The position numbers and the translations under genes were made by a program. The notes below the pieces were generated by a model. It saw nothing but the letters and a program-made list of their open reading frames with translations, was not told the origin of the DNA and made no database searches. From Clostridia bacterium (GTDB lineage: Bacteria > Bacillota > Clostridia > UMGS1883), in assembly GCA_045596985.1 (NCBI GenBank), contig JAZODM010000044.1, positions 6,222-70,221 of the forward strand: a DNA stretch of 64,000 nucleotides. The letters run 5' to 3'. Shown in pieces: positions 1 to 46,042 of this stretch; positions within the stretch are counted from its first letter, which is position 1, and each line of letters opens with the position of its first letter.

Positions 1-2411
1 TGATGGAGAAGGAAAGAGGTATCACCATTTTTTCCAAGCAGGCGGTAATGGAGACGGGCGGCACGAAGGTGACCCTTCTTGACACACCGGGGCACGTGGA
101 TTTTTCCGCCGAAACGGAGCGCGCGCTGTGGGTTATGGATTATGCAATCCTTGTCATAAGCGGTCTTGACGGTGTGCAGAGCCATACGCAGACCTTGTGG
201 AAGCTTCTTGCCCGTCATGGTATTCCGGTGTTCATTTTCGTCAACAAGATGGATATATCAAATTTTACTAAGGACGAGTTAATGCAGGAGCTTGGTGAAA
301 AGCTCTCGCCCGGATGCGTCGATTTTGAATGTGAAAATATGCTTGAAGAAGTTGCCCTGTGTGATGAAAAGCTGACGGAGCAATTTCTGGAAACGGAGAA
401 TATAGGAGAAGATGATATTTCCACCGCAATTTACGAAAGAAAGGTATTCCCGTGCTTTTTCGGATCAGCACTGAAGCTTGACGGCGTTGAAAACCTTCTT
501 GATGCGCTGCGAAAGTATATGGTAACATATGAAAATTCCCCATCCTTTGGGGCGAAGGTCTTTAAAATATCGGAGGATGAAAAAGGTGCAAGGCTGACCC
601 ATATGAAGATAACGGGCGGCTCTCTTTGCGTGCGCGATAAAATAAGCTATGACGATGCGGAGGAAAAGGTCAGCGAAATACGCATATATTCGGGTGCGAA
701 GTATAAGAGCGTGCCCGAGGCGCATATAGGTGACGTGTGCGTGGTATGCGGCCTTACAAAAACGTATGCAGGAATGGGACTTGGAAATGAGAACGATTCT
801 CCTGCGCCCGTGCTTGAAAGCGTTTTTACCTACAAGGTGACAGTTACGGACGGAACCGATACGCGCGTTGCCCTCGCAAAGCTAAAAAAGCTTGAGGAGG
901 AGGAAAACCGCCTTCACGTTATTTATAACAGTGTGCTGGGCGAAATCCACATTCAGCTTATGGGCGAGGTGCAGCTTGAAATAATGCAGCGCGTTTTGAG
1001 GGAACGCTTTTCTCTTTCGGTTGAGTTTGAGCAGAGCAGTATCCTATATAAAGAAACGGTGGAAGGAATTGTTGAGGGTGTCGGACATTACGAGCCGCTC
1101 CGCCATTATGCGGAGGTACACCTATTGTTAGAGCCGCTTAAACGTGGCAGCGGTATTGTTATTGAGTCTGACTGCAGCGAGGATGAGCTTTCACGAAACT
1201 GGCAGAGATTGGTTTTAACGCATATAAAGGAAAAAAATCACATAGGTGTGCTTACAGGTTCGCCCATTACTGATATGAAAATCACACTGAAGGCAGGTAA
1301 AGCGTATGTAAAGCATACTGTCGGCGGAGATTTTCGTCAGGCAACGTACCGTGCAATACGTCACGGACTGCGGTGCGCGCAAAGCGTTCTTTTAGAGCCT
1401 TATTATTCATTTACAATAGATGTTCCGCCCGAAAATGTCGGCAGGGCTATGACAGACCTTGAAAAAATGTATGCGCGCATTGATGTGCCGCAGATATTTG
1501 AGGGCAGCGCCCGTATAACGGGGGTAGCGCCCGTAATAGCGCTTGAGGGGTATCAGAAAATACTGACGGGATATACACGTGGAATTGGGAAAATGTCCTT
1601 TGCCCTGTGCGGATATGATACCTGTCACAATACAGATGAAGTGATTGAGAAAATTGCATACAATGCAGATGCCGACCTTGAAAACAGTGCTGATTCAGTT
1701 TTTTGTAAGCAGGGGGCAGGTTTTGTTGTGCCGTGGAACGAGGTGCACGAATATATGCATCTTGAAAGCGTTCTTGCACCGAAAAAGGAAGAGGAGATAA
1801 AAGCTCCCCCTATGCGCAAAAAAGCAATCGTCTATGACGAGGACGAACTTATCGAGATATTTGAGCGTACGTATGGAAAAATTGTCCATAAAAATCACAA
1901 TGCGATGAAAACACCCAAGGATGTTGTGAGGGAGAAAAAAGTGCGTTCCGCACCGCAAAAGCAAGGCCCGGGGTATATACTGATTGACGGATATAATATA
2001 ATTTTTGCATGGGACGAGTTGAAAGAGATTGCAAGGGACAGCCTCGAGGATGCACGCAATATGCTCATTGACAAGCTATGCTCCTACAAGGCATTAAGAC
2101 CGCAGCAGGTAATACTTGTTTTTGACGCATATAAGGTTAAGGGAAACCGCGGCGAGGTTGAAAAGGTGCATAACATTACCATTGTATATACCAAAGAGGC
2201 GCAGACCGCCGACGCGTATATAGAAAAGGCGGCGCACGAGCTTGGGAAGAAATATCAGGTGCAGGTTGCAACGAGTGATGCGCTGGAGCAGATGATAATA
2301 TTGGGCAGCGGAGCGCGCCGTATAAGTGCCGCCTCATTTATTAAGGAAATGAAGGATGTCGAGCAGGAAATAAGCGGTTTGCTCAAAGAAATTTCAAGCG
2401 AAAATATTTAA
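1..2411 (+). CDS. TetM/TetO/EF-G-like translational GTPase (5' partial) fused to a C-terminal YacP/Rae1-type NYN ribonuclease domain
   Basis: The ORF is open to the window edge. From memory, residues 1-~590 align colinearly with TetM/EF-G: the TPGHxDF switch region, the NKxD motif (VNKMDI), and domains II-V. A charged linker follows. The last ~150 aa (YILIDGYNIIFAWDEL...VFDAYKVKG...TADAYIEK...VATSD) match the YacP/Rae1 NYN fold with conserved acidic residues. Confidence 0.75.
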   Translation, partial: MEKERGITIFSKQAVMETGGTKVTLLDTPGHVDFSAETERALWVMDYAILVISGLDGVQSHTQTLWKLLARHGIPVFIFVNKMDISNFTKDELMQELGEKLSPGCVDFECENMLEEVALCDEKLTEQFLETENIGEDDISTAIYERKVFPCFFGSALKLDGVENLLDALRKYMVTYENSPSFGAKVFKISEDEKGARLTHMKITGGSLCVRDKISYDDAEEKVSEIRIYSGAKYKSVPEAHIGDVCVVCGLTKTYAGMGLGNENDSPAPVLESVFTYKVTVTDGTDTRVALAKLKKLEEEENRLHVIYNSVLGEIHIQLMGEVQLEIMQRVLRERFSLSVEFEQSSILYKETVEGIVEGVGHYEPLRHYAEVHLLLEPLKRGSGIVIESDCSEDELSRNWQRLVLTHIKEKNHIGVLTGSPITDMKITLKAGKAYVKHTVGGDFRQATYRAIRHGLRCAQSVLLEPYYSFTIDVPPENVGRAMTDLEKMYARIDVPQIFEGSARITGVAPVIALEGYQKILTGYTRGIGKMSFALCGYDTCHNTDEVIEKIAYNADADLENSADSVFCKQGAGFVVPWNEVHEYMHLESVLAPKKEEEIKAPPMRKKAIVYDEDELIEIFERTYGKIVHKNHNAMKTPKDVVREKKVRSAPQKQGPGYILIDGYNIIFAWDELKEIARDSLEDARNMLIDKLCSYKALRPQQVILVFDAYKVKGNRGEVEKVHNITIVYTKEAQTADAYIEKAAHELGKKYQVQVATSDALEQMIILGSGARRISAASFIKEMKDVEQEISGLLKEISSENI

Positions 2412-6992: not shown

Positions 6993-7628
6993 GTGAAAGT
7001 GGGTTTTACTATGGCACTTGAAAATAAGTTAGGTATTACTGATTCGGCTGAGCTTGCCCGTATAGAGGAAAAAATCAGTAAAAGAAAGGCTATAGAATTA
7101 TTTGAAAATGGATTTTTGAACACCTTGGAAGAAGGGAAGTTTTCTGCCCTTGCGGCTATTCATAAGTATCTTTTTGATGAGATTTATGATTTTGCAGGGA
7201 AGCTTAGAACAGTAAATATTTCAAAGGGGAATTTTAGATTTGCGCCTTTGATGTATCTGGAAGCGGCACTTGAAAGTATTGATAAAATGCCGCAGACCAC
7301 ATTTGATGAAATCATTGATAAATATGTTGAAATGAATATTGCCCATCCCTTCAGGGAAGGAAATGGGCGCAGTACACGCATATGGCTTGACTTAATTCTT
7401 AAAACACAGCTTCATAAGGTGGTGGATTGGAGCCGTGTTGAAAAAGAGGATTATCTGCTTGCAATGGAGCGCAGCCCTATTCGAAGCATCGAAATAAAGC
7501 ATATATTAAAGGCTGCTTTGACAGACGAAATTGATAATCGGGAAGTGTATATAAAGGGTGTAGACCATAGCTATTATTATGAAGGGTATACAGCCTTTAA
7601 AGCAGAAGATTTGGATATAAAACCATAA
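6993..7628 (+). CDS. fic: Fic family protein (class III, NmFic-like AMP-transferase with C-terminal inhibitory helix)
   Basis: Canonical Fic motif HPFREGNGRSTR and a C-terminal SYYYEG that matches the [S/T]xxxE[G/N] auto-inhibition motif. It is near-colinear with Neisseria NmFic as recalled from memory. An extended -10 (tgcTATAAT) sits at 6971-6979. The true start may be ATG 7011 rather than GTG 6993. Confidence 0.85.
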   Translation: MKVGFTMALENKLGITDSAELARIEEKISKRKAIELFENGFLNTLEEGKFSALAAIHKYLFDEIYDFAGKLRTVNISKGNFRFAPLMYLEAALESIDKMPQTTFDEIIDKYVEMNIAHPFREGNGRSTRIWLDLILKTQLHKVVDWSRVEKEDYLLAMERSPIRSIEIKHILKAALTDEIDNREVYIKGVDHSYYYEGYTAFKAEDLDIKP

Positions 7629-7644
7629 ATTGAATGTGAATAGC

Positions 7645-7686
7645 AAAAACCATCGCAGGAATTTTCCTGCGATGGTTTCATTTTGT
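7645..7686 (+). terminator. rho-independent terminator (stem CATCGCAGG...CCTGCGATG, second copy)
   Basis: Hairpin aaaaaccatcgcagga/tcctgcgatggttt followed by a T-run. The stem is near-identical to the hairpin at 6127-6162. Confidence 0.8.
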
Positions 7687-7727
7687 CTCGATTTGGGGAC
7701 AGTCCCAAAATTGAGACGTTTTTGTGC
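7687..7727 (+). terminator. second hairpin plus T-run carrying a TTGGGGAC-A-GTCCCAA core
   Basis: Imperfect ~14-bp stem (tctcgatttggggac / gtcccaaaattgagac) followed by gtttttg. Confidence 0.5.
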
Positions 7728-7765
7728 AGACATATCTTGCAATATGTCTGGTTATGTGTTACAAT
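7727..7765 (+). promoter_or_regulatory. sigma-70-type promoter TTGCAA-17-TACAAT with a 9-6-9 operator-like palindrome centred on the -35
   Basis: CAGACATAT-cttgca-ATATGTCTG is a perfect inverted repeat at 7727-7750. The -35 TTGCAA lies at 7737-7742 and the -10 TACAAT at 7760-7765. The RBS aaggagg lies at 7778-7784 and the ATG at 7795. Confidence 0.55.
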
Positions 7766-7794
7766 TACCACATAATTCAAGGAGGAGTGGAAAA

Positions 7795-9339
7795 ATGAAA
7801 AAAATTCTTACAATAATGCTGACTGCTATAGCGATACTTGTTATTATGCTTTCCTTTACAGTATCGGCATCTCAGCAGGTACAGGTAACGACTGCAAGCT
7901 TTCCCGTTGTTATAAACGGAAACATCGTAAACAATAGGATGCGTGAATATCCCTTTATTCTCTATAAGGATATTACATATTTTCCTATGACATATGAAGA
8001 CTGCGCATTTTTGGGTGTGGAAAATAACTGGACCGCACAAAGCGGCAACATCTTGACAAAAGCTACGCCCTCAGGTGTTTATTGCGACTACATCAGTACA
8101 CAGCTTAGTCTTGTAAAGCACGGGAAAGTTGCAACCATTGTGTCAACTCCCATAACGGTTCTTGGTGAAACCATAGATAATAATGCGCAGGAGTTTCCCA
8201 TCCTTAACTACAACAATGTTCTGTATTTTCCGCTGACATGGGACTGGTCACAGAAATTCGGATGGAGTACAATTTTTCACACAAACCGCACTTTAGAGGT
8301 TACCACAGAGGGATTTGATAATGCAGGATATTGTTTCCTCTACAGTATTGATAAATCAAAGGAACCTAAAAAACTTGACATACAGAATACTGATCTGCGG
8401 TATATGATGGATACTTACATAGAGGAATACAGCTATTCGCCTAATTATTCAGGTAACCCGTCCGCCACTGCAGACGGCTACAAATTTTTATATAAACTGG
8501 TTATGGCAGACGGAACGACCACTAATCATATTACTGTAAACGACAAGCTTTACCAGAAATTCAAGCAGGACGGATGGTTTGAAATAGGAGAAGAGGAACA
8601 GGCTGTTGCAGAGTTTGCCAAAACACATTCTATGCGGGATACTGCAAGAGCAATTACTCCGCTTCCTTACATAAAGATAGCGGACAGCGATCTCGAGTCA
8701 ATTCTGTATAATATAGCAACAAAATACACGACTCTTATATCAGCCGATCACAGAATATGTGCCGTAAAGGAAAGTGATGCTCAGGCATATAAGAGTGTGG
8801 GCTGGATGGGCGAGGAGGAGTACCTTGATTATTACGTAAACCTCTGCCTTGCAAGTGGTGATACGGGAAGTGCAATGACTTTCCTTGAAAAAACATTAGG
8901 AGAAGAAATCGCAGAAAACTTCGAAATAAGTGCCAAAATACCGTGGGATTATGACTATAGCCGTGTAGAACAAAAATATTATGACATTACTAAAAGCGTG
9001 CTTAATAAAATGAGTAAGGCGGTACAAGTGCGTGATGTATATGATTCAGCAAGAGTTGAAAGAGGAAAATTTATTGTCCTGAACTGTGCAGTTCCGGCAA
9101 GAAAGACCGTTAAAAGCGTGGAAGTATCCTTCGATGTGGTTGATGCCGGTGGCAAGGTAATCGCTTCGAGAACTGTTACGGAGAACATATACGCACAAAA
9201 TTACACAGACGGCAAACTTTTCGTCGCAGAGGGAATTTGCTATGCCTTCCAGTCTCCTGCGGAGAATGGAATCAAAAATGTTAAAGTCAAGAAAATTAAT
9301 ATTGTAGATACTGACTTCCGTCCTGGCGGTCAGGGTTAA
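7795..9339 (+). CDS. secreted hypothetical protein (signal peptide, two N-terminal repeats)
   Basis: Signal peptide MKKILTIMLTAIAILVIMLSF after a strong RBS. Repeats FP(V/I)xNxN...YFP(M/L)T(Y/W) occur twice. The ORF-track start at 7630 is rejected because two terminators lie inside that extension. Confidence 0.6.
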   Translation: MKKILTIMLTAIAILVIMLSFTVSASQQVQVTTASFPVVINGNIVNNRMREYPFILYKDITYFPMTYEDCAFLGVENNWTAQSGNILTKATPSGVYCDYISTQLSLVKHGKVATIVSTPITVLGETIDNNAQEFPILNYNNVLYFPLTWDWSQKFGWSTIFHTNRTLEVTTEGFDNAGYCFLYSIDKSKEPKKLDIQNTDLRYMMDTYIEEYSYSPNYSGNPSATADGYKFLYKLVMADGTTTNHITVNDKLYQKFKQDGWFEIGEEEQAVAEFAKTHSMRDTARAITPLPYIKIADSDLESILYNIATKYTTLISADHRICAVKESDAQAYKSVGWMGEEEYLDYYVNLCLASGDTGSAMTFLEKTLGEEIAENFEISAKIPWDYDYSRVEQKYYDITKSVLNKMSKAVQVRDVYDSARVERGKFIVLNCAVPARKTVKSVEVSFDVVDAGGKVIASRTVTENIYAQNYTDGKLFVAEGICYAFQSPAENGIKNVKVKKINIVDTDFRPGGQG

Positions 9340-17781: not shown

Positions 17782-18981
17782 ATGACGCTTAACCAAACAC
17801 CGTCTGCCGAGAGGGTGCATATAGGCTTTTTCGGCGCTACAAACGCAGGAAAATCAAGTCTGGTAAACCGCGTGACGGGGCAGAGTATGTCTTTGGTATC
17901 ACCCGTTTCGGGTACTACAACCGACCCTGTAAAAAAAGCGATGGAGCTTTTGCCGCTGGGGCCGGTTGTTATTGTTGATACGCCCGGTTTTGACGATGAA
18001 AGTGCGCTTGGAAAAATGCGCGTAGAGCGAACAAAAAAGGAATTGCAGACGATTGATGCTGCCGTTTTGGTGTGCGACAGTCAAAAGGGTATCACCAAAA
18101 CGGACGAGGAGCTTATAGAAATATTCAGGCAAAATAAGACGAGCTATATAATTGCCTACAGTAAGGCGGATTTGATAGAAAACCGCACAAAGCTGCGCGA
18201 AAACGAAATATATGTAAGTGCCAAGAGCGGTGAAAATATAGATGCACTGAAGGAGAAGCTTGCCCGTATTATTCCGCACAAATCAAACAAAATGGGAATA
18301 GTGGACAGCTTCGTAAAAAAAGGTGATACAGTAATCTTGGTAACACCGATTGACGAGGCTGCACCAAAGGGCAGAATAATTCTGCCGCAGCAGCAGGTGC
18401 TGAGAAACCTTCTTGATATAGGTGCAATAAGTTGTGTTGTTCAGGTGGAGGAGCTTAGCGCACTGCTTAGTAATTTAAAAACAAAGCCTGCAGCCGTTAT
18501 TACGGACAGTCAGGCATTTGGGGCAGTTTCAAAAATTGTGCCTGAGGAGATTCCCCTGACATCGTTTTCAATCCTTCTTGCAAATTACCGAAGGATGCTT
18601 GATACGGCGGTGGATGGAGTTCTGGCAATAAATGCACTCAAAGACGGTGACAAAATCCTTATTGCCGAAGGGTGCACACATCACAGACAGTGTAACGATA
18701 TAGGCAGTGTGAAAATACCCGCGTGGATAAGAAAGCACACGGGGAAGGAACTAAGTTTTGACGTGGTGTCAGGTCACGAATTTCCTGAAGATCTAAAAGA
18801 ATATTCCCTCATTCTTCATTGCGGAGGATGTATGATAACCGAGCGTGAGGTGGATGTACGCAGACAAAGGGCAGAAAATCAAAATATTCCTTTTACCAAT
18901 TATGGTATTGCGATTGCCTTTATTCACGGCATTTTGAAAAGAAGCGTAGAAGTGTTTCCAGAGCTTTATAAGAAACTTTAA
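17782..18981 (+). CDS. hydF: [FeFe]-hydrogenase maturation GTPase HydF
   Basis: N-terminal GTPase domain (GATNAGKSS, DTPG, SKAD). The C-terminal cluster-binding motif CTHH...HCGGC fits the CxH...HCxxC pattern. Confidence 0.8.
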   Translation: MTLNQTPSAERVHIGFFGATNAGKSSLVNRVTGQSMSLVSPVSGTTTDPVKKAMELLPLGPVVIVDTPGFDDESALGKMRVERTKKELQTIDAAVLVCDSQKGITKTDEELIEIFRQNKTSYIIAYSKADLIENRTKLRENEIYVSAKSGENIDALKEKLARIIPHKSNKMGIVDSFVKKGDTVILVTPIDEAAPKGRIILPQQQVLRNLLDIGAISCVVQVEELSALLSNLKTKPAAVITDSQAFGAVSKIVPEEIPLTSFSILLANYRRMLDTAVDGVLAINALKDGDKILIAEGCTHHRQCNDIGSVKIPAWIRKHTGKELSFDVVSGHEFPEDLKEYSLILHCGGCMITEREVDVRRQRAENQNIPFTNYGIAIAFIHGILKRSVEVFPELYKKL

Positions 18982-32700: not shown

Positions 32701-32733
32701 AGTGGAAGGTATAGAGTGCAAGGAGGAACTTTT

Positions 32734-34737
32734 ATGAGGATTGCATTGGCAGGAAACCCCAATAGCGGTAAGACTACAATGTATAATGCCCTTACCGGCG
32801 CGAATGAAAAGGTCGGCAACTGGGCAGGTGTGACAGTGGAGAAAAAAGAGCACATCATAAAAAAGAATTTTTATGACGGGGAGGAGCTTTTGGCGGTTGA
32901 CCTCCCGGGTGCATATTCTATGTCACCCTTTACCTCGGAGGAGAGTGTTACAAGCGCCTATATTAAAAACGAAAATCCTGATGTTATAATAAATATTGTA
33001 GATGCAACAAATCTCAGCCGCAGCCTCTTTTTCACAACACAGCTTCTTGAACTTGAAATTCCCGTTGTTGTTGCACTTAATAAGGCAGATATTAACGAGA
33101 AAAAGAAAACGCAAATTAATGAAAAGCTGCTTTCCGAGAAGCTTGGCTGCCCCGTTATAGAGACGATTTCGACTTCTTCAGACGGACTTTGTGAGGTTAT
33201 TGGGGCGGCAGTAGCCCTGAAGGGTAAAAAGCAGATAGCACCCTATGTGCAGACACAAACCAATCCTACCGACAGGAAATCTGCAGAGAAAGCCGACAGA
33301 AAGCGATTTGAATTTGTAAACGGCATAGTAAAGAGCGTTGAAAAAAGAAAAGTGCGCACAAACGAGATAAACACTCAGGATAAGGTTGATGCCATTATCA
33401 CAAACAGGTGGCTTGGTATTCCGCTTTTTGCAGTAATTATGTGGCTTGTATTTTACATTTCTCAGGCGTGGATTGGACCTTTTATTTCCGATATACTTGT
33501 AGGATGGATAGAGGCATTTGGCAGTATTGCCGACAAATGGATGGAAGGCGCAAGCAGTGAGTTTCTGAAATCACTTGTTTCAAGTGCCATTGTTGACGGT
33601 GTTGGCGCAGTTGTAAGCTTCCTCCCCCTTGTAATGGTGATGTACTTTATGATTGCTCTTTTAGAGGATTGCGGTTATATGGCGCGTGCGACAGTTGTCC
33701 TTGACCCCATTTTCAAAAAGGTTGGTCTTTCAGGAAAATCTGTAATCCCCTTTGTAATCGGTACGGGCTGTGCAATCCCCGGTGTTATGGCATGCCGTAC
33801 AATCCGCAGTGAGCGTGAAAGACGTGCAACGGCAATGATAGCGCCCTTTATGCCCTGCGGTGCAAAGCTCCCTGTAATTTCACTCTTTGTAGGTGCATTT
33901 TTCCCTGCCCACGCGTGGGTAGGCACTGCGATGTATTTTACAGGAATTGTAATTATCCTTCTTTGCGCACTTTTGATTAATAAAATCACGGGATATAAAC
34001 ACAGAAAATCCTTCTTTATTATTGAGCTTCCTGAATATAAATTCCCCTCAATCCGCAGAGCGGTCAAGTCTATGTGCTCACGCGGGTGGGCGTACATAGT
34101 TAAGGCAGGTACGATTATACTTGTATGTAATGTGGTGGTAACGCTTATGTGTTCCTTCACACCGAGACTGCTCCTTGCAGCGGAAGATGGCAGCAATTCA
34201 ATTCTTGCTGCAATATGTACACCTATAGACTGGATTATTCTTCCCGTTGTGGGCTTTGCTTCGTGGAAGCTTGTAGCGTGCGCAATTACCGGCTTTATTG
34301 CAAAGGAAAATGTTGTGGGTACTATTGCAACACTGTTTGGACTTTCTGCAGTGATTAACGGCGACCTTGAGCTTGTCGGGGAGGGAGTACAGGTTGCAGA
34401 GGCTATGAACCTTACCCAGGCTGCAGCTTTGGCGTATATGATGTTTAACCTTTTTACACCGCCATGCTTTGCGGCAATAGGTGCGATGAATGCTGAAATG
34501 AAGAGTGCCAAATGGCTTTGGGGAGGTATCGCACTGCAGCTTGGTGTTGGCTTTACGGTAGGTTATCTTGTTTACCAGATAGGCTCTCTTATTACTCTCG
34601 GCACTCTTGCGCCCGGATTTTTCAGTGGACTTATCGCACTTATTGTTATGGCGGCAATTGTTATATATCTGTGCATTAATGCAGATAAAAAGGTTAAAGA
34701 GTCAACCCCTGAAAAGAAGAAGGAGCTTGTAGTATGA
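32734..34737 (+). CDS. feoB: ferrous iron transporter FeoB
   Basis: N-terminal G-domain (GNPNSGKTT, DLPG, NKAD) followed by a ~10-TM permease. ATG 32734 follows the RBS aaggagg. Confidence 0.92.
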   Translation: MRIALAGNPNSGKTTMYNALTGANEKVGNWAGVTVEKKEHIIKKNFYDGEELLAVDLPGAYSMSPFTSEESVTSAYIKNENPDVIINIVDATNLSRSLFFTTQLLELEIPVVVALNKADINEKKKTQINEKLLSEKLGCPVIETISTSSDGLCEVIGAAVALKGKKQIAPYVQTQTNPTDRKSAEKADRKRFEFVNGIVKSVEKRKVRTNEINTQDKVDAIITNRWLGIPLFAVIMWLVFYISQAWIGPFISDILVGWIEAFGSIADKWMEGASSEFLKSLVSSAIVDGVGAVVSFLPLVMVMYFMIALLEDCGYMARATVVLDPIFKKVGLSGKSVIPFVIGTGCAIPGVMACRTIRSERERRATAMIAPFMPCGAKLPVISLFVGAFFPAHAWVGTAMYFTGIVIILLCALLINKITGYKHRKSFFIIELPEYKFPSIRRAVKSMCSRGWAYIVKAGTIILVCNVVVTLMCSFTPRLLLAAEDGSNSILAAICTPIDWIILPVVGFASWKLVACAITGFIAKENVVGTIATLFGLSAVINGDLELVGEGVQVAEAMNLTQAAALAYMMFNLFTPPCFAAIGAMNAEMKSAKWLWGGIALQLGVGFTVGYLVYQIGSLITLGTLAPGFFSGLIALIVMAAIVIYLCINADKKVKESTPEKKKELVV

Positions 34738-44275: not shown

Positions 44276-46042
44276 ATGCCGCTTGACGCGATTGCACTGG
44301 GTGCAATTGCCCATGAGCTTGGGTGTGAGCTTGAGGGCGCAAAAATTGAAAAAGTGCATCAGCCGGAGCGCGATGAAATCCTGCTTGTTATAAAAGGTCA
44401 CAAAGGGGCAAGAAAGCTTGTTATCAGCGCATCTTCTGCAAATGCGAGGATGCATCTTGTGGAGGAGAGCAAGGAAAACCCCGCAGTTCCGCCGATGTTT
44501 TGTATGCTCCTTCGTAAGCATCTTACGGGCGGAAAAATATGCAGTATAAAAAGGCTTGGCTACGAGAGGGCAGTTGATATTGAAATCTCGTGCAGAAACG
44601 AGCTGGGTGATCTTACGGTGCGGCATATAATTTGCGAAATTATGGGGCGGAACAGCAATATCATCTTCCTTGACGAGAACAGAAAAATCATTGACAGTGT
44701 AAAGCATATTGATTTAAGTGTAAGCTCGGTCAGAAATATTCTGCCCGGACTTTTATATATGATGCCGCCTGACGGGGGAAGGGTTAATCCGTCCTCGGCA
44801 ACGGAGGAGGATTTTTTCAACATCCTTATAAATTCGCCCGAAGGACGCGAGGCGGAGCGGGCAATAACCGATGCCGTTATGGGGATAAGTCCCCTTCTTG
44901 CAGGGGAGTGTGTGTTCCGTGCGTGCGGCAGCAGAAAATTAGTTATCGGGGAGCTTTCGCGTGATGATATAGAGAAAATCGCACGAGAGCTTTATGAAAT
45001 GTTCGAAAAGGCGGAAAATGCAGAGTTTTCACCATGCATTATCTTTTCTGAAGACGGAAAAAAGGCGGCGGATTTTGCGCCGTTTGAAATAAAGCAGTAT
45101 GGTACGCTGAGAAAATGCAAGGCGGCAGAAAGTATGAACAGTGCCGCGTGTGAGTTTTATTTTATGCGCGACCTGTACGCGCGTATGACTGACAGGAGCA
45201 GCACCATCACAAAGGTTATTACCAATAACCTGAAAAGGGCGGAGAAGAAGCTTAACATATTGCAGTCGGAGCTTAAAGAGGCGGAGAACAGGGAGCACCT
45301 TCGAATATGCGGCGACCTTATCACGGCAAACCTTTACAAAATGGAAAAAGGGGATAAGGTTTTGATTGCACAAAACTTCTATGATGAAGACCAGGCGGAA
45401 ATTGAAATTAAGCTTGACGTTACCCTTTCACCGTCAGAAAACGCAAAAAAGTATTATACAAGGTACAAGAAAGCAAAAAATACCCAAGCCTATGCCCAGG
45501 AGCAGATTAAAATAACCGTTGACGAGATTGCATATCTTGAATCGGTGCTTTACAGTGTGTCAAATGCGCAAACTGTAGCGCAGCTTGGTGAAATAAAGGC
45601 GGAGCTTGCACGTTACGGCTATATAAAGGGAGATGCGGGCAAAAAGAAAAAGGAAAAGCAGCCCCCCATGGGAAAGCCACTCCAGTTTGAGTATAACGGT
45701 TATACAATTTACGTTGGCAGAAATAATGTGCAGAACGATTATCTCACCCTTAAAATGGGGCGCAGCCGTGATTTGTGGCTGCATACGAAAAATATACCCG
45801 GCTCGCATACCCTTGTAAAGTATATGGGGGAGGAATTTCCAAACGATGTAATAGAGGTTGCGGCATCGATTGCGGCATTTTACTCCAAAGGAAAAAATGC
45901 GCCGTATGTAGAGGTGGATTACTGCCCGGTAAGCCACGTGAAAAAACCGTCGGGGGCAAAGGCAGGTATGGTAATCTATGAAGGATACAACACTGCATTT
46001 GTTATGCCTGACGGACAAAAAGCAGAAGAATTAAGGAAATGA
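44276..46042 (+). CDS. rqcH: ribosome quality-control factor RqcH (NFACT family; fibronectin-binding protein A homologue)
   Basis: NFACT-N (MPLDAIALGAIAHEL...), coiled coil, and a C-terminal NFACT-R domain. A TTGCAA-17-TATAAT promoter lies upstream. Confidence 0.85.
   Translation: MPLDAIALGAIAHELGCELEGAKIEKVHQPERDEILLVIKGHKGARKLVISASSANARMHLVEESKENPAVPPMFCMLLRKHLTGGKICSIKRLGYERAVDIEISCRNELGDLTVRHIICEIMGRNSNIIFLDENRKIIDSVKHIDLSVSSVRNILPGLLYMMPPDGGRVNPSSATEEDFFNILINSPEGREAERAITDAVMGISPLLAGECVFRACGSRKLVIGELSRDDIEKIARELYEMFEKAENAEFSPCIIFSEDGKKAADFAPFEIKQYGTLRKCKAAESMNSAACEFYFMRDLYARMTDRSSTITKVITNNLKRAEKKLNILQSELKEAENREHLRICGDLITANLYKMEKGDKVLIAQNFYDEDQAEIEIKLDVTLSPSENAKKYYTRYKKAKNTQAYAQEQIKITVDEIAYLESVLYSVSNAQTVAQLGEIKAELARYGYIKGDAGKKKKEKQPPMGKPLQFEYNGYTIYVGRNNVQNDYLTLKMGRSRDLWLHTKNIPGSHTLVKYMGEEFPNDVIEVAASIAAFYSKGKNAPYVEVDYCPVSHVKKPSGAKAGMVIYEGYNTAFVMPDGQKAEELRK

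Follow-up and report, generated by a model that had tools for sequence, protein, structure and literature searches.

When bound to ribosomes, the translational GTPases EF-G and TetM fill the 30S A site with their domain IV, and EF-G normally engages ribosomes in the rotated state. We describe here a gene in which a GTPase of this kind is joined to an endoribonuclease domain of the Rae1 (YacP) type. It opens a stretch of 64,000 nucleotides from a Clostridia bacterium (contig JAZODM010000044.1 of assembly GCA_045596985.1, positions 6,222 to 70,221 of the forward strand), hereafter called the window. Rae1 itself requires translation in order to act, and its D7N D81N variant is the published catalytically dead mutant (PMC10351889). 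It acts on collided ribosomes and feeds trans-translation, being needed for tagging by transfer-messenger RNA (tmRNA) after collisions; the model that docked it in the ribosomal A site was withdrawn by its authors in 2025 (PMC13622287). In native disomes of Bacillus subtilis, the collided ribosome is found in a rotated (hybrid) conformation (PMC10897456).

The fusion of a TetM-like GTPase to an NYN_YacP domain has been reported before, by Atkinson 2015 (PMC4342817) and by Matelska et al. 2017 (PMC5499597), in about ten species of Clostridia and under the topics of tetracycline resistance or rRNA processing. The first of these surveys placed the family under 'Tet'. The window protein, with the same architecture and from the same bacterial class, is a further member; the architecture also stands in domain databases, and its novelty was overstated in a preliminary description of this DNA. 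Both reports are contemporary with or older than the discovery of Rae1 activity, and neither draws a link from the fusion to the translation-dependent mRNA cleavage by Rae1. No paper that connects the fusion with Rae1 biology, or puts it to the test, came up in a full-text search whose scope did not extend to Leroy 2017 and Condon 2018.

To the published architecture we add the size of the family and its distinction from the resistance proteins, the anatomy of a C-terminal extension (CTE) and of a tether, a nuclease-less form of the GTPase and an updated mechanism. It is highly probable that the protein docks on ribosomes by its GTPase and bears a Rae1-type nuclease that is active. Our fuller reading, to which we give a probability of roughly 55%, is that of a housekeeping, ribosome-associated Rae1-type endoribonuclease with hard-wired GTPase delivery to stalled or collided ribosomes.

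One gene encodes the GTPase and the nuclease domain

Positions 3..2411 of the forward strand form one unbroken open reading frame (ORF) of 802 codons followed by a TAA stop, in which an EF-G/TetM-like GTPase and a complete Rae1-type nuclease domain are joined. Pfam and structure comparison confirm both modules of the fusion proposed in the preliminary description. The frame runs past the 5' edge of the window, as had been recognised, and 48 codons at the start of the 850-aa protein lie outside. The database protein P0001 (850 aa), identical at 100% across all 802 window residues, supplies the 48 missing residues, including the P-loop AHVDSGKT. The features of the gene are the following, with residue numbers of Pfam domains in the numbering of the window ORF:

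3..2411, + strand: whole ORF, 802 codons and stop, 5'-truncated at the window edge; full protein 850 aa
6..521 (residues 2-173), + strand: G domain, Pfam GTP_EFTU, E=2.9e-34
within the G domain, + strand: RGIT (G2), DTPGH (G3 with the catalytic His, nt 81-95) and NKMD (G4, nt 243-254); G1 lies upstream of the window
549..764 (residues 183-254), + strand: EF-G domain II, Pfam EF-G_D2, sub-threshold at 22.4 bits against a 27-bit cut-off
816..1031 (residues 272-343), + strand: EF-G domain III, Pfam EFG_III, 27.5 bits
1041..1379 (residues 347-459), + strand: EF-G domain IV, Pfam EFG_IV, E=5.2e-15, with family-specific tip loops
1077-1118, + strand: domain-IV loop I, GVGHYEPLRHYAEV, from alignment
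1305-1340, + strand: domain-IV loop III, YVKHTVGGDFRQ, from alignment
1386..1631 (residues 462-543), + strand: EF-G domain V, Pfam EFG_C, E=7.5e-16
1611..1769, + strand: CTE, the conserved C-terminal extension of the GTPase module, from alignments and an AlphaFold 2 (AF2) model
1770..1835, + strand: tether segment 1, variable and predicted disordered, with a model confidence (pLDDT) <50 and low conservation
1836..1880, + strand: tether helix, conserved and amphipathic, DEDELIEIFERTYGK, from conservation and as a helix in both AF2 models
1881..1967, + strand: tether segment 2, basic and predicted disordered (pLDDT <50), directly N-terminal of the nuclease active-site strand
1977..2408 (Pfam residues 659-797), + strand: NYN_YacP/Rae1 nuclease domain, complete, Pfam PF05991, E=1.6e-49
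1986-1988, 2124-2126, 2211-2213 and 2277-2279, + strand: catalytic Asp codons, equivalent to D7, D53, D81 and D104 of Rae1

The profile search thus recovered GTP_EFTU, EFG_III, EFG_IV, EFG_C and NYN_YacP, as had been anticipated, with domain II just under its threshold. The latter is supported by a beta-barrel in the AF2 model and by the Foldseek match to full-length EF-G.

The fusion recurs widely. In each of the best 120 clusters at 90% identity, a protein of about 850 aa unites the two modules, and the best 150 representatives at 50% identity are all fused as well (~830-1150 aa), with end-to-end matches at E <=1e-190. A scan of one genome per species, with the junction and nuclease region as query, gave at least 600 pattern matches and at least 549 confirmed relatives. 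Among its best 80 loci, 75 are complete single ORFs across both modules, four are interrupted by contig ends and one (L020) is split in the tether. The fusion had been taken for natural, and these single ORFs bear this out: no frameshift between two genes lies behind it. An artefact is ruled out by the recurrence in clusters and loci, and we give it a negligible probability. L020 comes from a 3.1-kb contig of a metagenome-assembled genome and has ORFs at 3-1727 and 1746-2426, for which a sequencing error or a natural split are both possible.

The survey of hosts found the fusion widespread in Clostridia, with a vertical distribution over Oscillospiraceae, Ruminococcus, Acutalibacteraceae, Faecalibacterium, Oscillibacter, Intestinimonas, Monoglobus and Lachnospiraceae, the last including Blautia, Faecalimonas, Eubacterium xylanophilum and Agathobacter rectalis. 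The fusion family is common in gut Clostridia and much larger than in the earlier reports.

The nuclease domain keeps the acidic residues of Rae1

The last ~150 residues had been read as a YacP/Rae1 NYN domain with its acidic residues, which the Pfam match, the superposition on 5MQ9 and four aspartates all corroborate. They score 168.5 bits with NYN_YacP (gathering cut-off 24.6) and match B. subtilis YacP/Rae1 (5MQ8/5MQ9) with E=3.6e-30 and an identity of about 40%. In an AlphaFold model of the C-terminal 266 residues, pLDDT is >90 across the nuclease domain, and the model superposes on 5MQ9 with a root-mean-square deviation of 1.6 Å over 145 columns (Foldseek E=1.2e-12), Rae1 being its only significant fold match.

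Each of D7, D53, D81 and D104 of Rae1 aligns to an aspartate in the window protein. These four are kept in 178-179 of 180 full-length relatives, the set in which residue conservation was counted; alignments of 31 and of 192 relatives were used. At the other end of the protein, GKT is kept in 180/180 relatives and the catalytic His of DTPGH in 179/180, and the NKxD and GSAL motifs are conserved too. The conserved G motifs and nuclease aspartates together indicate that both enzymatic centres are under purifying selection.

The domain corresponds to positions 1-141 of the 166 positions of the Pfam profile. The C-terminal tail of Rae1, of ~25 aa, is absent from the window protein and from 107/180 relatives, and is kept in 41/180. 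Rae1 of B. subtilis is a free protein of ~170 aa with transient ribosome binding; here the same domain, recognisable in the C-terminal 145 aa with its four acidic residues, follows 700 other residues in the chain, is held covalently by a GTPase module of 640 aa and has lost the tail. Judged by its sequence, the window protein would not count as a strict Rae1 orthologue, that is, a free single domain with tail.

The GTPase module forms a subfamily of its own

Pfam finds five domains in the EF-G order G, II, III, IV and V. A Foldseek search with the predicted structure retrieved about 50 structures of EF-G, EF-G2 and TetM (E down to 7e-51), which the full-length AF2 model matches over about 690 columns. 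Colinearity with TetM and EF-G, previously extended to ~590 residues, holds to about residue 540; residues 537-589 are a family-specific extension instead.

We compared the module with TetM, TetO, TetW, TetB(P), an OtrA-like and a Tet36-like protein, and with two EF-Gs, all taken from plasmid records. Its identity is 23-33% to the six ribosomal-protection proteins, which share 28-78% with each other, and 26-28% to EF-G. In neighbour-joining distance trees with a limited outgroup, the only trees used in this work, the six ribosomal-protection proteins form a clade with 100% bootstrap and the fusion family lies outside it.

The tip loops of domain IV, with family consensus GxGH[YF]EPLxHYAEV and KHTxGGDFRQA, are the best-conserved blocks of the protein outside the G motifs and G domain. 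Such conservation suggests that the loops touch a part of the ribosome that does not vary. Common to the ribosomal-protection proteins are PNPFWA (loop I), [YF][YF]SPxSTxADFR (loop III) and a C-terminal helix of basic character (QPRRPNSRIDKVR); the tip loops of EF-G read GGxGQYG and SYHDVDS. In an alignment with the six ribosomal-protection proteins and the EF-Gs, neither the loops nor the basic helix of the former, nor the loops of the latter, occur in the fusion family. The TetM tip YSPVST, rightly reported as missing from domain IV, aligns to YVKHTVGG.

In overall build the module is like TetM, TetO, TetW, TetB(P) and OtrA, a GTPase of five EF-G-like domains, comparable in length and likewise with a reduced G' insertion, but it is without their domain-IV loops and basic helix, carries a different 50-aa extension and is encoded on chromosomes. 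With EF-G it shares the fold, the domain order, intact GTPase motifs and an EPLxRGSG scaffold in domain IV that resembles that of EF-G; the low identity and the replacement of GGxGQYG and SYHDVDS set it apart. As neither loop set is present, sequence comparison places the GTPase module in a translational-GTPase subfamily of its own, outside the tetracycline ribosomal-protection clade.

Going by many database names, the protein would protect ribosomes against tetracycline and carry the nuclease as an accessory. No solved structure matches the sequence better than TetM (E=1.4e-57), tet_protect is the best NCBIfam model for the GTPase module, and RefSeq calls several members TetM/TetW/TetO/TetS family. 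However, the score with tet_protect is far under the cut-off (341 against 775), as is that with the TetM/W/O/S model NF033148 (225 against 1100), and the EF-G equivalog TIGR00484 fares no better (218 against 659). Scores, loops and clade all leave the module outside the resistance proteins, and its identity to them is no closer than to EF-G. In addition, the gene is chromosomal with no sign of mobile elements, and no tet(M)-like terminator, attenuator or leader-peptide signal was found upstream in L001, a 72%-identical relative in which the upstream region was read in place of that of the window's own gene, an exact look-up of P0001 on contigs having given no hit. Resistance is therefore very unlikely, as the preliminary description had already judged.

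Names in the databases are inconsistent, from 'translation factor GTPase family protein', 'elongation factor G' and 'small GTP-binding protein' to 'TetM/TetW/TetO/TetS family tetracycline resistance ribosomal protection protein' and 'TetM from transposon Tn916'. Since the curated resistance models score so far under their cut-offs, the resistance names are probably over-annotation; an annotation that is probably wrong in this way could inflate resistome counts.

A conserved extension and a three-part tether connect the modules

The CTE (residues 537-589 of the window ORF) begins where colinearity with TetM and EF-G stops, right after domain V. In its ~50 aa, Y586, Y601, D606, S613, F615, G619 and W626 are conserved, an S-x-F motif among them, and the AF2 model predicts a small alpha/beta unit. 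It is absent in TetM and EF-G and present in nuclease-less relatives from Lactobacillaceae, and thus belongs to the GTPase. A zinc site formed by C589, C616 and H634 of the CTE was considered and dropped, because the cysteines vary among relatives.

Between the CTE and the nuclease, the preliminary description had placed a 65-aa charged linker. Its length of ~65 aa stands, but it is not uniform: a variable disordered segment of ~20 aa is followed by a conserved helix and by a disordered basic segment of ~30 aa. The helix, DEDELIEIFERTYG in the window protein, has the family consensus DDELxxIFERTYG, with E663, L664, I667 and F668 conserved in the alignment of relatives. Of 180 relatives, 94% have a net positive charge in the basic segment (median +6), which stops a few residues ahead of the first active-site strand of the nuclease.

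Lactobacillaceae carry the GTPase without the nuclease

A 46%-identical homologue that ends just after the CTE is encoded on a megaplasmid of Ligilactobacillus salivarius (NZ_CP137609.1, L083 5855-7773). A search with the L. salivarius sequence gave 118 full-length clusters (>=620 aa) among the top 120 matches, with Companilactobacillus, Levilactobacillus, Paucilactobacillus, Pediococcus, Loigolactobacillus and others as hosts. Many of the genes lie on chromosome-sized contigs of 2.3-3.0 Mb (further loci L094, L095 and L097). The L. salivarius C2-1 copy has a frameshift near its start and adjoins a paralogue of rpsN (S14).

These 'translation factor GTPase family proteins' of ~640-660 aa share 46-48% identity, the same CTE and the loop signatures GxGHFEPLRHYAEV and H[ST]VGGDFR with the fused proteins. 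The loop I motif is found in 100/118 clusters and the CTE motif in 116/118; the core H[ST]xGGDFR of loop III is shared as well. Each protein stops about 17 residues past the Trp of the CTE, with neither tether nor NYN domain, and no NYN gene or rae1 was found beside the GTPase gene in the three copies examined. The nuclease-less group is monophyletic (100%) and placed among the fused proteins with low support in the neighbour-joining tree, so that loss of the nuclease and its primary absence are not distinguishable. By Rosetta-stone logic, a GTPase and a Rae1 that are separate in one lineage and fused in another are predicted to share a process.

A model for delivery to stalled or collided ribosomes

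In the reading that we favour, the N-terminal 590 residues would dock in their GTP form at the ribosomal factor-binding site, and the conserved tip of domain IV would enter the decoding centre, as in EF-G and TetM. With domain IV in the A site, the nuclease would be excluded from there and would act at the end of its tether, whose about 50 disordered residues and helix would set its reach. The GTPase may pick ribosomes with a free factor site, either a stalled lead ribosome with an empty A site or a trailing, collided ribosome locked in the rotated pre-translocation state, both of which agree with present data on Rae1. The mRNA entry site of the trailing ribosome would adjoin the segment 12 nt upstream of the A site of the lead ribosome. 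The tethered nuclease might then cut the mRNA at the ribosome periphery or at the disome interface, and not in the A site; the shortened mRNA would hand the ribosomes to trans-translation through tmRNA or to ribosome-associated quality control (RQC), and GTP hydrolysis would release the factor.

The preliminary description had argued instead that Rae1 and EF-G/TetM-type GTPases meet at the same A site. The NYN domain, brought there by the GTPase, would then cut the A-site codon in the manner of RelE, in keeping with the original docking model of Rae1 (quoted in PMC10351889). The tether does join the nuclease a few residues from its active-site strand, and the adjacent basic segment could follow the mRNA. 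But the argument rests on a Rae1 model that was withdrawn in 2025 (PMC13622287). Moreover, the conserved tip of domain IV argues that the module itself fills the A site, and binding in the way of EF-G and TetM would leave no room for a nuclease at the same time. We hold cleavage in the A site to be improbable.

Several points weigh against delivery to stalled or collided ribosomes as well. The preferred ribosomal state could be the non-rotated one with an empty A site, as for TetM-like factors, or the rotated one, as for EF-G, and the sequence favours neither. Ribosome binding, GTPase activity and the RNA substrate, here mRNA, are all predicted properties, as is the link to stalling or collision. 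The nuclease-less form implies that the GTPase has a job of its own for which no nuclease is needed, and the lost tail means that the domain may not behave exactly as Rae1. Furthermore, there is no structure of ribosome-bound Rae1, whose binding is transient (PMC13622287), and the geometry of the tethered domain is conjectural for that reason.

By functional analogy only, the proposed delivery of a nuclease to stalled or collided ribosomes recalls SmrB of E. coli and Cue2 of yeast, which cut mRNA at such ribosomes and so start their rescue, and Dom34-Hbs1, in which Hbs1 is a translational GTPase delivering a rescue factor. SmrB and Cue2 have the SMR nuclease fold, which is unrelated to the NYN fold found here, and none of these systems has a sensor GTPase and a nuclease in one polypeptide.

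More tentatively, we suggest that such a protein, with a GTP-gated sensor and an mRNA cutter directed at stalled or collided ribosomes in one polypeptide, could be the main working form of Rae1 in the dominant gut Clostridia, and that the lone GTPase of Lactobacillaceae could be an unrecognised rescue GTPase partnering Rae1 in every case where the two are separate. Common in Faecalibacterium, Ruminococcus, Agathobacter and Oscillospiraceae, the fusion may be a main route of ribosome rescue there, and in its light the orphan GTPase of Lactobacillaceae is likely to take part in the pathway too. A Rae1 naturally welded to a GTPase might also be trapped on its ribosome by combining a non-hydrolysable GTP analogue with an inactivated nuclease; provided that the fused domain occupies the place of free Rae1, such a complex could reveal where and how the nuclease meets the mRNA.

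Genomic context

Downstream of the fused gene, the window encodes pyruvate:ferredoxin oxidoreductase, Fic, RsmF, pyrophosphatase, Maf, MreCD, PBP2 and MinC. L001 has the same gene order, with spoIIE divergently upstream. At 6993-9339 (+ strand) of the window lie a Fic/DOC protein (6993-7628) and then a 569-aa ORF without Pfam match; both are absent in the otherwise syntenic L001 and look like a small insertion between the pyruvate:ferredoxin oxidoreductase gene and rsmF.

The rRNA methyltransferase gene rsmF, a few kb downstream in both the window and L001, would suit an rRNA- or tRNA-directed nuclease that the GTPase places for ribosome maturation, inactivation or turnover, and such a role fits the older prediction for YacP. 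This neighbourhood is not conserved over 82 loci, however, and every experimentally known substrate of Rae1 is an mRNA. Constitutive cutting of rRNA by a widespread housekeeping protein would also be costly, and we consider this role unlikely, if less so than cleavage in the A site.

No neighbouring gene family is common to more than 8/82 loci, and no stand-alone NYN gene occurs at any of these 82 loci. In the window there is no second copy of the NYN domain or of the GTPase, nor was the genome's own EF-G seen there. Neither the window nor ten related loci contain an Rfam element.

Two plasmid records hold the fused gene, of 518 kb in Monoglobus and of 252 kb in A. rectalis, both non-mobilizable. 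The A. rectalis copy (L002 6126-8927) is surrounded by ordinary metabolic genes; a BrnT/BrnA toxin-antitoxin pair lies divergently upstream of it (L002 5462-5970) and is not conserved elsewhere. Carriage by plasmids was rejected, both records being large and non-mobilizable and the inspected one bearing metabolic genes. The record 'UNVERIFIED: Bacteriophage sp.' MT835563.1 carries the fused gene (L092 5397-8024) among bacterial housekeeping genes. Its neighbours are NAD(P)H-hydrate dehydratase, Sir2, DapF and aldose epimerase, and the record is apparently a bacterial contig that was entered as phage; a second record of the phage collection with the fused gene is MT835514.1. Carriage by phages was rejected too, the inspected record being an unverified contig of this kind. 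On the chromosome the fused gene stands alone, in the manner of a housekeeping gene, and nothing suggests that mobile elements carry it.

These data also bear on a toxin, or an effector of anti-phage abortive infection, that would cut RNA on ribosomes, a role that the preliminary description had entertained. Ribosome-dependent nucleases are common toxins, one copy stands beside BrnT/BrnA and two records of a phage collection carry the gene. Against this, PADLOC gave no defence-system match, no partner or immunity gene is conserved, and the 'phage' record that was inspected holds housekeeping genes. The broad presence in Clostridia with no sign of mobile elements is unlike a defence island. Of the roles considered, this one is the least credible.

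The same genome encodes RqcH, and the RQC branch of stalled-ribosome rescue is thus present. The RqcH-type protein (NFACT_N, E=2.9e-140, and NFACT-R) is encoded at 44276-46042 (+ strand) of the window, 42 kb from the fused gene and unlinked to it.

In 66/82 related loci, for example at L074 4228-6897 (- strand), very long antisense ORFs lie over the fused gene and reach 889 aa. The longest over the fused gene of the window has 110 aa, and the long ones elsewhere are probably an effect of codon composition. Finally, the window encodes the [FeFe]-hydrogenase maturation GTPase HydF (17782-18981, + strand) and FeoB (32716-34737), which, together with the pyruvate:ferredoxin oxidoreductase gene beside the fusion, fit the genome of an anaerobic, fermentative member of the Clostridia.

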